Below are positions 27,747-33,010 of a stretch of DNA of 33,237 bases, in pieces (position 1 is the stretch's first letter; the number at the start of each line of letters is the position of its first letter). The position numbers were made by a program, and so were the translations under genes. A model generated the notes under the pieces. That model made no database searches, was not told the origin of the DNA, and saw only the letters and a program-made list of their open reading frames with translations. The stretch spans positions 1 to 33,237 of the forward strand of contig JBDRBU010000012.1 of the NCBI GenBank assembly GCA_043822305.1. Reading direction: 5' to 3'. This stretch comes from Candidatus Firestoneibacteriota bacterium. Its GTDB lineage: Bacteria > Oederibacteriota > D2-FULL-39-29 > JBDRBU01.

Positions 27747-27841
27747 GGACAGATACCTATTTTTCTTACAAGATAGATTTTATTATATTGTAGTTTTGCC
27801 CATTCATAAGATTTAATGTCAAAGAGGGAGAAAAATAATGA

Positions 27842-27918
27842 CGGGGTGTGGCGCAGTTGGCTAGCGCACTCGCTTGGGGTGCGAGTGGTCGCCCGTTCAA
27901 ATCGGGTCGCCCCGACCA
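27842..27918 (+). tRNA. tRNA-Pro(GGG), CCA encoded
   Basis: Acceptor CGGGGTG/CGCCCCG, D-arm GCGC, anticodon arm CTCGC-TTGGGGT-GCGAG, T-loop TTCAAAT, ends ACCA; 77 nt. Confidence 0.95.
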
Positions 27919-27939: not shown

Positions 27940-28692
27940 ATGAAACCTAAAATACTAATTACAAATGATGATGGCATATATTCAAATGGGATAAATTTGC
28001 TAATAAAGATTTTGAAACCGCTGGGAGATTTATGTGTCGTGGCTCCATTACAAGAAAAGAGTGGAGCGGGACATTCTATAACTATGCATCATCCTTTACG
28101 AGTTCGGTTTTTAAAAAAAAATGTAGTTGCCGTTGAAGGAACACCAACAGACTGTGTAATGTTTGGAATATACTACTTATTGAATCACAAAAGACCTGCT
28201 TTACTTGTCTCCGGAATTAATAAAGGAGCAAATCTAGGCGATGACATAACATATTCCGGTACAGTTAGTGCTGCTTTAGAAGGAACATTACTTGGAGTTC
28301 CCTCTATGGCTGTGTCATTATGTGGAGAAAAGATATTTAATTTATCTGGTATCTCTAAATTTTTAAGGAATTTATGTAGATTAATTATTAAGAACAATCT
28401 CCCCAAAAATACTTTTTTAAATATAAATATCCCTTGTGTAAAAAAAATTAAAGGAACAATGCTTACAAAACAAGGAAAAAGAATTTATAAAGATACTATG
28501 ATAAAAAAAATAGACCCAAGGGGTAACTCTTATTTTTGGTTAGATGGAGAAAAACCTTCATGGGAGAAAGGGAAAAATACAGACTTTGAAGCTATAGGAA
28601 AAAATATGATTTCTATCACTCCTTTAAAATTTGATTTAACTAATTACGAGGTAATGGATAAACTTACCTGTTTTAGTAAGATAAAAATATAA
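27940..28692 (+). CDS. surE: 5'/3'-nucleotidase SurE
   Basis: KILITNDDG, SGAGHSIT, GTPTDCV, SGINKGANLG, YSGTVSAALEG, ISITPL. Start moved to ATG 27940 because the ORF-track start lies in the tRNA. Confidence 0.95.
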   Translation: MKPKILITNDDGIYSNGINLLIKILKPLGDLCVVAPLQEKSGAGHSITMHHPLRVRFLKKNVVAVEGTPTDCVMFGIYYLLNHKRPALLVSGINKGANLGDDITYSGTVSAALEGTLLGVPSMAVSLCGEKIFNLSGISKFLRNLCRLIIKNNLPKNTFLNINIPCVKKIKGTMLTKQGKRIYKDTMIKKIDPRGNSYFWLDGEKPSWEKGKNTDFEAIGKNMISITPLKFDLTNYEVMDKLTCFSKIKI

Positions 28693-29435
28693 TGAATACC
28701 TTTTTAAAATTAAGCGGGGCGTGGCGCAGTTGGCTAGCGCATCTCGTTCGGGACGAGAGGGTCACCCGTTCAAATCGGGTCGCCCCGATATTTCTTATCA
28801 TTTTTATTGCTTTTAATTCATATGCTACTCCAGACAGTGCAAGTTCATATAATGGCCCAACTGGTCTAATAAATATTCCTTCAGGAAATATTTTAGATAA
28901 TAATGAACAAACAGTTTCTTTGCATAGATACCAGATTAAATATACATATGGTCTTCTTTCAATCTTAGAGATTGGATTAAAAACAAGTTTAGAAGGAGTG
29001 TCTACTTTAGAAACTTTATCAAAAAATTTTACTTTTAATATAAAAGGACAATTATTAGACGAGAATAAACATTTTATAAATTTATCTATTGGTGTAGAGA
29101 GTACAAATTTTTATTTATCAATAAATAAGCATTTTAAAGAATTAAATGATATAAATATATATATAGGGACAGGTACATCAAGATTTAACTATTTTTTTAT
29201 GGGAATTTCATATTATGTTGACCCACTTCTTAGATTAATGTTTGAGTATGATGGTGTTGATTTCAACATTGGTGGGAGGTTATTACTTTCACCACAAATA
29301 AGATTTGATATATGTATTTTAGGTTTTAAAAAATTATATCAACTTCCATATTTAAATGATATAATTAATAATAATATAGTATTTGGAATATCTTATTCTG
29401 AATACTTAAATATTGATTTAAGTGGTATTTTTTAG
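28692..29435 (+). CDS. YjbH-like outer-membrane beta-barrel protein; start uncertain because the 5' end overlaps a tRNA
   Basis: Signal h-region IFLIIFIAFNSYA; YNGPTGLINIPSGNIL resembles the YjbH N-terminus; amphipathic strands; terminal Phe. Confidence 0.65.
   Translation: MNTFLKLSGAWRSWLAHLVRDERVTRSNRVAPIFLIIFIAFNSYATPDSASSYNGPTGLINIPSGNILDNNEQTVSLHRYQIKYTYGLLSILEIGLKTSLEGVSTLETLSKNFTFNIKGQLLDENKHFINLSIGVESTNFYLSINKHFKELNDINIYIGTGTSRFNYFFMGISYYVDPLLRLMFEYDGVDFNIGGRLLLSPQIRFDICILGFKKLYQLPYLNDIINNNIVFGISYSEYLNIDLSGIF
28715..28788 (+). tRNA. tRNA-Pro(CGG), CCA not encoded
   Basis: Acceptor CGGGGCG/CGCCCCG, anticodon arm TCTCG-TTCGGGA-CGAGA, T-arm ACCCG-TTCAAAT-CGGGT, discriminator A. Confidence 0.92.
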
Positions 29436-29452
29436 TAAGTGAGGATTATTTT

Positions 29453-30292
29453 GTGAAAGATATATTAAGAATTTATTTAAAAGAAATAGGTAATTTTCCC
29501 CTGCTTTCTCGTGAGGAAGAAATAAAATTATTTCGTTTATATAAGAAGGGAAATAAATTAGTTAAAAGATTACTAATAAAATCAAATCTTAGATTAGTGG
29601 TTAATATTGCAAAAAGGTATATTAAATTTGGTGTTCCATTACTTGACTTAATAGAAGAGGGAAATATGGGACTAATTAAAGCAATTGAAAGATTTAAATT
29701 TCAAAAAGGATTTAGGTTTAGCACATATGCTACTTGGTGGATTAAACAATATATTATCAGGGCTTTATCAGAACAAGGTAGGTCTATTCATTTACCTGTA
29801 CATATTATAGAAATGCTAAACAAGTATATAAAGGTAACAACACAGTTGATTCAAAAATTAGGCAGGGAACCAACTGTTAAAGAAGTATCCAAAAAATTAA
29901 GATTATCTATAGATAAAACAAAAAAAATAATTGAAATATCAGAAATGCCAATTTCTTTAACTTTATTTACACCTGATGATGAAGATAAAAGAACTTTAGA
30001 AGATTTGATAGAAGATAAGACTTTTATTTCTCCTTTTGAATCTCATATTTCTGTAATACAATTAGAAAGAATTGAGAAACTTCTTGAAGTATTAAACAAA
30101 AGAGAGGGTATGATCTTAAGATTAAGATTTGGCCTTAAAAATAGCATACCTCATACTTTAGCCGAAACAGGTAAAATTTTTAAAATTAGCAGGGAAAGAA
30201 TAAGACAAATAGAAGTAAAAGCGTTAAGAAAATTAAGACATTCTGCAGGAAGTAAAGAAAAAGGTTTAGAATATTTTTCAAGAGAAGAATAG
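29453..30292 (+). CDS. RNA polymerase sigma70-family factor, group 2/RpoS-like (no region 1.1)
   Basis: GTG start with SD GAGGA; region 1.2 LRIYLKEIG...LLSREEE; region 2 NLRLVVNIAKRY, RFSTYATWWIKQ; region 4 SRERIRQIE. Confidence 0.92.
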   Translation: MKDILRIYLKEIGNFPLLSREEEIKLFRLYKKGNKLVKRLLIKSNLRLVVNIAKRYIKFGVPLLDLIEEGNMGLIKAIERFKFQKGFRFSTYATWWIKQYIIRALSEQGRSIHLPVHIIEMLNKYIKVTTQLIQKLGREPTVKEVSKKLRLSIDKTKKIIEISEMPISLTLFTPDDEDKRTLEDLIEDKTFISPFESHISVIQLERIEKLLEVLNKREGMILRLRFGLKNSIPHTLAETGKIFKISRERIRQIEVKALRKLRHSAGSKEKGLEYFSREE

Positions 30293-30397: not shown

Positions 30398-33010
30398 TTA
30401 TTTAAATTTTTGGATGTTTAGTCTTGCGTTTGTATAGTTTGGGTTAATTTCCAATGCTTTTTCCCAGGATTTGATTGCGGTTTTAAAATCTCCTTTTGTT
30501 CCATAGGCTATACCCAGATTATTCCATGCTTCTACATCCAAAGGTTTTAATAAAGTTATATTTTTATAGCAATTAATTACTCCATCAAGATTTCCAGTAC
30601 TTGACATGACTACACCCAGACTATTCCAGGCTTCTATAAATTTTGGATTTAATTTCAAGGCAACCTCGTATTCTTTTATGGAATTTTTATAATCTTTTTG
30701 TCGAAAGTACACAGTGGCTAATCCATAGTGAGTTTCAGGAACACTGGGATTTATACTTAATGCTTTATTAAAAGAAATGATTGATTCGTCATAAGATCCT
30801 TTTTTATCATAGACTACTCCCAGATTTGTATATATTTCATACGAGTTTGGTTCAATTAGAAGTCCCTTTTCATAAGATTCAATTGCTTTATCTAATTCAT
30901 TTTTGTCTAAGTAAGCATTACCAAGTATATAGTGTGCTTTAGATATATACGGATTTATGGCTAAGGCTCTTTCGTAAACTTGGACAGCATCATCTGGTAA
31001 ATTTGCTTGTCTATATAATTGTCCAAGATTATAAAAATATGTGTCTATTGGTGAAATTTCTATCGCTTTTAAATAATATTTTATAGCACTGTCAAACAGT
31101 CCTTTTTTATAATAAATAATTCCCAGATTATTAAATGCATCTGCAAATTTAGGATTTATCTCTACGGCTTTATTACAGTATTTTATGGCTTCATCTAAAA
31201 ATCCCTTCTTTATAAATGATATCCCTAAATTATTTTGAACAGTTTCAATGTCAGAACCTATTTTTTCTACTTCATTATAGAAAATCTCTGCTTGTTTTAT
31301 GTCTTTATTTTCAAAGCAGTACTCACCCAGAGAAAAATAAAATAATGAAATAACTTCTCTTGTTAAAAAATCTTTATAAAATGAGTTATCTTCAAAAAGT
31401 TTAGTGTCATAAGTATTAACATTAAATTTTTCTACAACTTCATTTGAATTTTTTAAAACTCTGAATAACATACCAACCGATTTAGTGTTCGCACTTGGGA
31501 CATTATAAATATTGCTACCGGTAACACAATATACTGGTGTTTTAGAGGCTTGAATTAATCTCCACTGAACATCGTTTAATCTTTTATGATAATCACCGAA
31601 CTCTAATTTGTAAAAATCTTTTCCGTAGATGTTTTCAAAAACATTTCCTGTATCATCATATATAGTTAGATCAGGTCGTTTTATCTCAACCTTTTGTAGA
31701 TATGCATTTATAAATGTTGCATTGTCACCGGCCACAAAGAGAACTCCATCTTTAGATACAGTTTTTAAAATATTTACTCCGTAAGTATATGCAGTTGTAT
31801 TTTTACTTTTGTCATTTTTGAAATAATTAAATTTTAAAGTTAAAACTGTAAAAAGTAATAAGATAAGTGTTAAAACATATTTTGCCCACGCACCAGAAGG
31901 TGCGGGGTTTAAGTAGTTAAATTTATTGAAAAGAAAAAAGACTCCAAGAGAGCCCAGGATTGAAAGTATTAAGTATGATGGGATAAAAAATGGGTCCATA
32001 ATATAAAGGTCATGACTGTTTAATAAATAATTTGTAAGAAAAGCAAACCCAAAACTTGTTAAACAAAATATTGTCAAGAGTAATATCAAGAAAACTTTTT
32101 TTAACTTAAAAAGAAAATAAACGCCAAAAGGAAAGAATAAAAATAATAAATTTCCCTGATTAACTACTGCTTTTATATATCCACCTGTTTGAGAAACGAA
32201 GTGACTTAAAGTTCTTTGTCCAGCTTCTACAATTTGATATTGCTGTCTGGTTATATGTCTAATAAAATTTGGAATATTTTCCGGATTTCCCCAGTCTAGA
32301 GGTGGATTAGCTAATGAGCGGATAGGGAGATACAGATAAGTGACTAAAGTGACTAAAGTGACTAAAGTGAAGAAAGTAAAAAGATAAGAAAAAATATTTT
32401 TCTTATCTATTTTATATATCAAGTAAAATAAATATAATGAAAATAAAAATGTTAAAGGAATCATAGTTTGATGGTTGGCCAGTCCTAAACCACAAAGAAT
32501 AGCTATTGGATATATTTTTTTTAAATCTCTTGTTACTTCAATTATCCATATTAGATATAATATGGATAACATTATAAAAGCATTAAGTGTATATAATCCA
32601 CCTTTGGCCATTAAACTTTGATTCCAGAATGAAAAAGAAAAAGCGAAGGATAGAGAAGCAAAAGTAGAAGTTTGGTAGTCGCAGACTTTAGCCTGCGAAT
32701 AAAGGAAAGTAGAGAGAGTAAAAAAAGTAGATAATGATAAAAATAATATAAATATTGTAAGACTGCCGAAAAATGCGGAGGTTAAATTCACTCTGTAGGC
32801 AATGTTGCTTAATGGAAGTGTTGAAAATATTTTCCCGAGCATTGTATAAAGAGGATAACCAGGCGGATGAGGTATACCCAGATAATATGCCGCTGTGATT
32901 ATTTCACCACTATCCCCAACATAAACTGTTGGACAAATAGTGACTAAATAGATAGAAAATGGAATAATGAATGAAAGTAATGTAATTGTTATATTAAATA
33001 TTCTTTTCAT
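30398..33010 (-). CDS. DUF2723/TMEM260-like GT-C membrane glycosyltransferase with C-terminal TPR array
   Basis: GDSGEIITAAYYLGIPHPPGYPLY signature, ~10 TM helices, YLYLPIRS...DWGNP, GDN motif, about eight TPRs (AWNNLG...). Confidence 0.85.
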   Translation of the reverse strand: MKRIFNITITLLSFIIPFSIYLVTICPTVYVGDSGEIITAAYYLGIPHPPGYPLYTMLGKIFSTLPLSNIAYRVNLTSAFFGSLTIFILFLSLSTFFTLSTFLYSQAKVCDYQTSTFASLSFAFSFSFWNQSLMAKGGLYTLNAFIMLSILYLIWIIEVTRDLKKIYPIAILCGLGLANHQTMIPLTFLFSLYLFYLIYKIDKKNIFSYLFTFFTLVTLVTLVTYLYLPIRSLANPPLDWGNPENIPNFIRHITRQQYQIVEAGQRTLSHFVSQTGGYIKAVVNQGNLLFLFFPFGVYFLFKLKKVFLILLLTIFCLTSFGFAFLTNYLLNSHDLYIMDPFFIPSYLILSILGSLGVFFLFNKFNYLNPAPSGAWAKYVLTLILLLFTVLTLKFNYFKNDKSKNTTAYTYGVNILKTVSKDGVLFVAGDNATFINAYLQKVEIKRPDLTIYDDTGNVFENIYGKDFYKLEFGDYHKRLNDVQWRLIQASKTPVYCVTGSNIYNVPSANTKSVGMLFRVLKNSNEVVEKFNVNTYDTKLFEDNSFYKDFLTREVISLFYFSLGEYCFENKDIKQAEIFYNEVEKIGSDIETVQNNLGISFIKKGFLDEAIKYCNKAVEINPKFADAFNNLGIIYYKKGLFDSAIKYYLKAIEISPIDTYFYNLGQLYRQANLPDDAVQVYERALAINPYISKAHYILGNAYLDKNELDKAIESYEKGLLIEPNSYEIYTNLGVVYDKKGSYDESIISFNKALSINPSVPETHYGLATVYFRQKDYKNSIKEYEVALKLNPKFIEAWNSLGVVMSSTGNLDGVINCYKNITLLKPLDVEAWNNLGIAYGTKGDFKTAIKSWEKALEINPNYTNARLNIQKFK

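Follow-up and report, generated by a model that had tools for sequence, protein, structure and literature searches.

Mixed tRNA-mRNA operons are known from Escherichia coli, where thrU-tyrU-glyT-thrT-tufB and secG-leuU each place tRNAs and protein genes on one transcript, to be parted by RNase P and 3′ processing, with the tRNAs lying between the coding regions. Dual-function RNAs such as tmRNA, SgrS/SgrT and RNAIII/delta-haemolysin unite structured non-coding and coding functions in a single RNA, mostly in separate parts, and none of them is a canonical elongator tRNA. Here we describe a locus of a Candidatus Firestoneibacteriota bacterium (assembly GCA_043822305.1, contig JBDRBU010000012.1) in which a complete tRNA-Pro(CGG) gene lies, on the same strand, within the open reading frame (ORF) of a predicted outer-membrane beta-barrel protein, between surE and a sigma-factor gene. 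The window analysed is the entire 33,237-nt contig (C12) of a draft genome of 2.15 Mb with 31.6 % G+C and 97 % completeness, referred to below as G000.

The locus resembles the mixed operons in its row of tRNA and protein genes, which would likewise share a transcript, and the gene order tRNA-Pro(GGG), tRNA-Pro(CGG), barrel gene is widespread in this phylum. It differs from them in that the whole tRNA lies within a reading frame, where its bases appear to be codons, and from the dual-function RNAs in that the same 74 bases would serve both functions. Mitochondrial tRNA punctuation and tRNA/protein overlaps come close in another way, since a same-strand tRNA or tRNA-like element lies in or against a coding region and processing and translation are alternative uses of the RNA. 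One such overlap is known from octocoral mitochondria, in which a putative tRNA-Pro-like gene lies within mtMutS (PMC11353228); it differs from the present locus in belonging to an organelle, in involving a putative tRNA and in being unconnected with signal peptides or translational coupling. A full-text literature search found no bacterial tRNA nested in a translated gene. Mycobacteriophage Patience (PMC4324244) was considered as a precedent and rejected, its embedded ORFs being unrelated to its tRNA.

The initial annotation had placed a complete tRNA-Pro(CGG) inside the apparent 5′ end of a protein-coding gene, and both ARAGORN and Rfam (60.4 bits against RF00005, gathering threshold 29, full model 1–71) recovered it on the same strand at that position. 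Its description of the frame was also borne out: an ATG at 28692 overlaps the surE stop, and the frame remains open across all 74 nt of the tRNA to the end of the gene. The tRNA-coded codons are 8–33 (SGAWRSWLAHLVRDERVTRSNRVAPI; codons 8 and 33 in part). Codon 33 is the ATA at 28788, and the hydrophobic run IFLIIFIAF follows directly, so that the h-region begins at the discriminator base. No ATG, GTG or TTG occurs in the ORF frame between ATG 28692 and codon 77, the next canonical starts being TTG 28920 and GTG 28998. There is no Shine–Dalgarno (SD) sequence ahead of ATG 28692. Stop-start overlap is the usual arrangement for reinitiation, and with an overlap that is kept in relatives surE and the ORF form a putative translationally coupled pair. 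Judged by eye, the signal peptide read from ATG 28692 has an n-region with six K/R and two D/E, the core IFLIIFIAF and the c-region NSYA, with putative cleavage after SYA; read from ATA 28788, it has no n-region.

Table 1. Features of the surE–tRNA-Pro(CGG)–barrel gene locus (columns: feature, position in the window, strand, basis or remark)
tRNA-Pro(GGG), CCA encoded, first in a mixed row of tRNA and protein genes	27842..27918	+	ARAGORN; Rfam 58.0 bits
surE (5′/3′-nucleotidase SurE), 250 amino acids (aa), ATG 27940, stop TAA 28690–28692	27940..28692	+	Pfam PF01975, E 6.1e-59
TAATG, surE stop and ORF ATG with one base in common	28690..28694	+	equivalents: ATGA (genus g2), GTGA (G003, L043)
predicted outer-membrane beta-barrel ORF, 247 aa, from the putatively coupled ATG across the tRNA	28692..29435	+	ORF list; AlphaFold (AF2) predicted local distance difference test (pLDDT) 93.1; Foldseek
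tRNA-Pro(CGG), 74 nt, CCA not encoded, next base T	28715..28788	+	ARAGORN; Rfam
codon 11, TGG = tRNA positions 8–10, G9 in place of A9	28722..28724	+	comparison of tRNA-Pro(CGG) types
putative signal-peptide h- and c-region IFLIIFIAFNSYA, first codon ATA using the discriminator base	28788..28826	+	homology to L031 IFLIMLAALNSYGA
predicted mature barrel domain, conserved N-terminal motif YNGPTGLxNIPSG, C-terminal Phe	28827..29432	+	alignment; AF2 model
GAGGA Shine–Dalgarno of the sigma-factor gene, 8 nt ahead of GTG	29441..29445	+	sequence
sigma-70 family factor, 279 aa, GTG start, own ribosome-binding site	29453..30292	+	Pfam regions 1.2, 2, 3, 4

On this anatomy, we think it probable, though well short of certain, that ribosomes reaching the ORF by coupling to surE translate straight across the tRNA, which would then encode the basic n-region of the signal peptide, and that tRNA processing cuts the same RNA. 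Ribosomes ending surE at UAA would restart on the overlapping AUG 28692, 23 nt ahead of the tRNA, and a ribosome at that AUG would already occupy the 5′ side of the acceptor stem and so keep the cloverleaf from forming. Translation would proceed via rare codons (CGC, CGG, CTC) into the core that starts at the discriminator base; the unfolded 28715–28788 would be read as codons 8–33 and supply the basic n-region (..RDERVTRSNRVAP) of a Sec signal peptide. A ribosome-free transcript would fold into the cloverleaf of the cell's only tRNA-Pro(CGG), to be cut by RNase P at 28715 and by 3′ processing at or after 28788, splitting the ATA codon, before CCA addition. Release of the tRNA would sever the ORF from its start codon, and the sigma-factor gene would retain its own ribosome-binding site and could therefore still be translated from the processed RNA. 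That surE ribosome traffic decides, molecule by molecule, between protein and tRNA is a further step for which the case is evenly balanced; it would make the locus a translation-gated tRNA maturation switch of a clade within Candidatus Firestonebacteria, tying together tRNA supply, surE translation, output of an envelope protein and the RNA context of the sigma-factor gene. The penultimate tRNA-coded codon is CCG, which matches the anticodon of the tRNA itself and leaves room for feedback.

The search for relatives covered 40 related genomes in addition to G000 itself, and all 12 reference genomes of the order. Metagenomes contributed 16 loci, of which most are near-identical to reference genomes; eight further contig loci apparently come from the same species as reference genomes, judging by identities and matched ranges. 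G000 represents family f1, and its sister family f2 comprises genus g2 (G001, G005, G007, G009) and genus g4 (G003). In family f2 as in G000, CCA is not encoded, the hydrophobic core starts at the discriminator base with an Ile codon (ATT or ATA) and the frame is open across the tRNA; seven metagenome contigs (L035–L041) repeat the f2 forms. Conservation of the open frame and of the stop-start coupling, which the initial annotation had named beforehand as a test of its proposal, was found throughout: each of the 13 loci examined that have no spacer between tRNA and core (G000, five reference genomes and seven metagenome contigs) has an overlapping in-frame start and a frame that stays open until the gene ends. 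These 13 loci contain three distinct start-to-tRNA spacer sequences, and contig L043, which has a spacer after the tRNA, adds a fourth with the same properties. The start overlapping the surE stop takes the form TAATG in G000 (23 nt ahead of the tRNA), ATGA in g2 (17 nt) and GTGA in G003 and L043 (68 nt), always in the frame that runs through the tRNA and the gene. In addition, a database protein with 62 % identity (P0002, ..GAWRRWLAHLVRDQRVTRSNRVAP-IVLFF..), represented by its protein sequence alone, also reads through a tRNA. A sequencing or assembly error, or a frameshift, hiding a start was ruled out, as the same junction is found in independent assemblies.

Several further features suggest that the tRNA is translated. 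G003 and L043 have 65-nt spacers that agree at few positions, yet both are stop-free in the ORF frame (0.18 and 0.12 of shuffles, respectively), with stops in both other frames. Among the 19 distinct tRNA-Pro(CGG) types of the phylum, 17 have U8-A9-G10, an in-frame TAG; only the two nested types, those of G000 and f2, have TGG in its place, so that a single A-to-G change at tRNA position 9 opens the frame. The ratio of non-synonymous to synonymous substitution rates (dN/dS) is 0.05–0.10 among the four g2 genomes (dS 0.4–1.9), indicating strong purifying selection while the gene is nested, 0.05 between G003 and L043 and 0.22 between G000 and L031. At codons 22–45 past the junction in g2, which hold the N-terminal motif and precede the next canonical start of G000, the corresponding ratio of observed differences (pN/pS) is 0–0.16.

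The closest homologue of the G000 protein, encoded by contig L031 (78 % identity), has no tRNA or surE upstream and reads ..QKKFALRSVIA-IFLIMLAALNSYGA. Compared with it, G000 lacks the n-region QKKFALRS and three core residues, VIA. The break falls exactly at the homologous ATA codon, and ..VTRSNRVAP, read from the tRNA, stands in place of the missing residues. In the ORF frame the conserved T-arm GTTCAAATC translates as R-S-N-R, and K/R residues precede the hydrophobic core in 61 of 69 full-length homologues. L031 carries an 82-codon in-frame leader (479–724) that includes a tandem SEKIFL SEKIFL and has no stop, as is the case for 0.0035 of shuffles; there is no ATG, GTG or TTG within 64 codons of the signal peptide. 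Such a leader suggests that the L031 protein, too, has a long N-terminal extension. Start candidates in L031 are ATG 479, TTG 524/527 and ATT 683; a divergent RadC-like gene and TTGACA/TATAAT-like boxes are found upstream.

Two other layouts place the nested form in context. Relatives with stops or frameshifts across the tRNA and a normal downstream start had been proposed as evidence against translation through the tRNA, and relatives with a stop in the tRNA frame and such a start do exist: in family f3 (G002, G004, G006, G010, L032–L034, L042, L044, L045) the tRNA has an encoded CCA, the matched part of the gene begins 68–252 nt past it with stops in the gene frame in between, and the gene has its own TTG start and an n-region with KK or RK. 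Theirs is, however, a different layout, which looks like the ancestral state and does not refute the proposal. Distant genomes of the phylum also have tRNA-Pro(GGG) and tRNA-Pro(CGG) just upstream of the barrel gene, so the co-location is old. The remaining layout, an intermediate one, is that of L043 (69–334), in which the surE stop is overlapped by GTG and an f2-type CCA-less tRNA is followed by a 125-nt in-frame spacer that is stop-free (0.07 of shuffles) and contains ordinary ATG starts and a KYRR n-region. L043 is the sister of G003 in the protein tree, and G003 looks as if it had lost, in frame, about 117 nt of an L043-type spacer. The L043 spacer also carries a CCGCCA..TGGCGG hairpin. 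Among f3-type loci, spacers flanking tRNA-Pro(CGG) (L002, L010, L032, L034, L044) hold G+C-rich CCGCC-loop-GGCGG hairpins in A+T-rich surroundings, which may act in RNA processing or in termination, or belong to a small family of repeats.

Open frames across tRNAs are not in themselves unusual. Of the 42 tRNAs of G000, 5 are crossed by an open same-strand frame that runs on for 150 codons or more. In the other four of these cases a canonical ATG or GTG lies 18–132 nt past the tRNA, and the three in which the start region was inspected have an SD sequence ahead of it (GAAGGAG, AAGGAG, AAGGAGG); together with the GAGGA of the sigma-factor gene, these show that G000 uses Shine–Dalgarno sites. The barrel gene stands alone in this set in having neither an SD sequence nor a canonical start past the tRNA.

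A number of observations weigh against translation through the tRNA. The lineages are kin, so the recurrences are not fully independent; P0002, G000 with L031, f2 and f3 meet in a polytomy in the protein tree (25 rows), which gives no branching order for f1, f2 and f3 and is fitted equally by a single origin with later changes in L031 and L043 and by several origins. Short spacers are readily stop-free by chance (0.50 of shuffles for G000 and 0.85 for g2), leaving the test powerless there, and chance also often produces an NTGA overlap. The adjoining tRNA-Pro(GGG) normally has G9, which it shows in all genomes of the order and in 9 of its 18 types, so the A9G change is cheap and may be neutral or the product of gene conversion. 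In g2 the pN/pS of the h- and c-region is near 1, over few sites, and selection therefore does not show where translation begins. The tRNA-coded stretch contains very rare codons (CGC at 0.8 and CGG at 1.1 per 1000, and also CTC), and ribosomes would have to open a stable tRNA fold. Finally, the frame is open through the tRNA in L043 and in the gene of P0005 despite an ordinary internal start, so an open frame can precede or outlive the need for it. P0005 (281 aa, 37 % identity), in a farther lineage with the same 3′ frame open, has a predicted N-terminus ..LAHLLREQGVVRSNRIAPT.. coded by a tRNA-Pro(CGG) with CCA, followed by an internal Met and an ordinary signal peptide; its N-terminus is probably a gene-caller extension, which means that gene callers can create extensions of this kind.

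Some of this evidence also bears on the strongest alternative, which we nonetheless consider unlikely: that the start codon lies past the tRNA and is non-canonical or weak (in G000 ATA 28788, ATC 28797 or ATT 28800; in f2 either ATT or the codon-5 GTG) and that the open frame is a by-product. An Ile codon, ATA or ATT, does stand at the junction in all nested types, but its first two bases are already explained by discriminator A73 and by the T that follows most CCA-less tRNAs; moreover, 3′ maturation of the tRNA would cut within this codon, and none of the nested types has made the one-step change to ATG there. Weak starts are evidently a habit of this gene, as TTG is used throughout f3. The GTG at codon 5 past the junction is kept in all four g2 genomes and G003 has TTG and GTG within the core, points that count against translation through the tRNA as well, as do the eight of the 69 homologues with signal peptides lacking K/R. 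The candidate codons themselves lie in or against the acceptor/T-arm helix, with no SD sequence ahead of them in a genome that otherwise uses AAGGAG. L031 can be read both ways: it too lacks a canonical start near its signal peptide and has an in-frame ATT just ahead of QKK, but its stop-free leader fits an N-terminal extension better than an ATT start. A start past the tRNA would also leave the three stop-start overlaps, the stop-free 68-nt spacers and G9 unexplained.

A second alternative concerns the state of the gene in G000. The initial annotation had called its product YjbH-like, a label that was not upheld: the match to Pfam PF06082 reaches 16 bits, under the cut-off of 24 (E 0.0057), and covers profile positions 6–131 of 658 only. 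Searched against 1.84 billion representatives, the sequence past the junction finds 88 relatives at E ≤0.001, most of them 200–250 aa long. The AlphaFold model from a 52-row alignment (mean pLDDT as in Table 1) has 13 strands by DSSP, and the top Foldseek matches in the Protein Data Bank (PDB) are all outer-membrane barrels, namely FapF, NanC, Omp33, porins and a designed 12-stranded barrel. The product thus models as a roughly 12-stranded outer-membrane beta-barrel. With FapF, NanC and Omp33 (PDB 5o68, 2wjr, 6gie; E 2.5e-5 to 1.6e-3, query-normalized template modelling score 0.40–0.46) it would share the fold, a C-terminal Phe (..SGIF) and the need for Sec export, although at 8–12 % identity no family assignment follows. 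The barrel model and the C-terminal Phe together imply that an export signal is required.

The barrel gene of G000 might have lost its start and n-region by a deletion up to the tRNA and be silent or decaying, the upstream ATG being there by luck; we regard this as improbable. The chance of a stop-free spacer in G000 given above, a dN/dS against L031 higher than the g2 values and the representation of family f1 by G000 alone in the reference set would all fit such a loss. So would the only version in the public protein collection, P0001, a 171-aa piece starting at TTG 28920 without signal peptide or YNGPTG motif. Its truncation is most likely a gene-calling artefact tied to the upstream tRNA: in genome annotation a stretch of one strand is taken to be either a tRNA gene or a coding region, not both, and the masking of tRNAs by gene callers has here yielded a truncated protein without export signal. 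Against decay, G000 retains every one of the 46 columns that are invariant in the family alignment, with no stop and no frameshift; the same junction is under strong purifying selection in g2 and is kept in P0002; and TAATG requires a specific TG after the stop.

The tRNA itself is apparently intact and working. The f2 type scores 58.3 bits, and the scores of both nested types match those of free-standing relatives. In an RNAalifold alignment of 11 tRNA types, 23 pairs were found, of which 12 have changes on both sides and none is broken; all 23 cloverleaf pairs are intact in both nested types, between which the D, anticodon and T stems show compensatory changes. The anticodon CGG stands in a 7-nt loop, and C1-G72 and A73, which we take to be proline tRNA identity elements, are the same as in other tRNA-Pro genes. 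It is the sole tRNA-Pro with this anticodon among the 42 tRNAs of G000. The five f2 genomes likewise have one 100 % copy each, their other matches, at 84–89 % identity, including the adjoining tRNA-Pro(GGG) and presumably tRNA-Pro(UGG); G009 has one additional partial tRNA match at a contig end. It is very improbable that the tRNA is a non-working relic whose sole remaining use is as coding sequence or as an RNA processing signal: its encoded CCA is lost where 30 of the 42 G000 tRNAs have one, tRNA-Pro(UGG) is present and may read CCG, and the best match to RNase Z (TIGR02651) in this 97 %-complete genome reaches 20.9 bits against a cut-off of 292.95, but the single-copy status, the 23 kept pairs with their compensatory changes and the scores speak for function, 11 other G000 tRNAs also lack CCA (12 in all, most then followed by T) in a genome with two nucleotidyltransferase-family (PolyA_pol) genes, and CCG makes up 15 % of its proline codons.

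If translation through the tRNA is correct, this would be a bacterial case of a complete elongator tRNA lying in frame in a translated gene, with both functions selected, in at least two families. It would imply that tRNA sequences can be recruited as coding material, the R-S-N-R of the T-arm being a ready-made basic n-region, and would make the locus a natural setting in which to study how ribosomes and RNase P compete for the same RNA. Other such genes may then be escaping annotation pipelines.

The surroundings of the locus were also inspected. A sigma-70 consensus scan of the + strand found no promoter at 27954–28715, the region giving 11 sites in total against 16 expected by chance, so that this negative carries little weight. 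The sole terminator-like match (28774–28789; 1 found, 1.2 expected) consists of the tRNA 3′ end and the T-rich signal-peptide codons. At the start of the row, the sequence at 27824–27865 contains an SD-like AGGGAG and an ATG (27838) 4 nt ahead of tRNA-Pro(GGG), from which an 8-codon frame closes at a TAG in the D-loop of that tRNA. The surE ATG lies 21 nt past the CCA of tRNA-Pro(GGG), without a clear SD sequence. Downstream of the sigma-factor gene in G000 is a convergent gene for an 870-aa tetratricopeptide repeat (TPR) membrane protein (30398–33010). In relatives (L003–L009, L033–L045) the barrel gene is followed in a row by the sigma factor, tRNA-Arg(TCT), tRNA-Lys(CTT), tRNA-Leu(TAG) and so on; the row of these three tRNAs is found in G000 on a different contig (C85:41163–42405).

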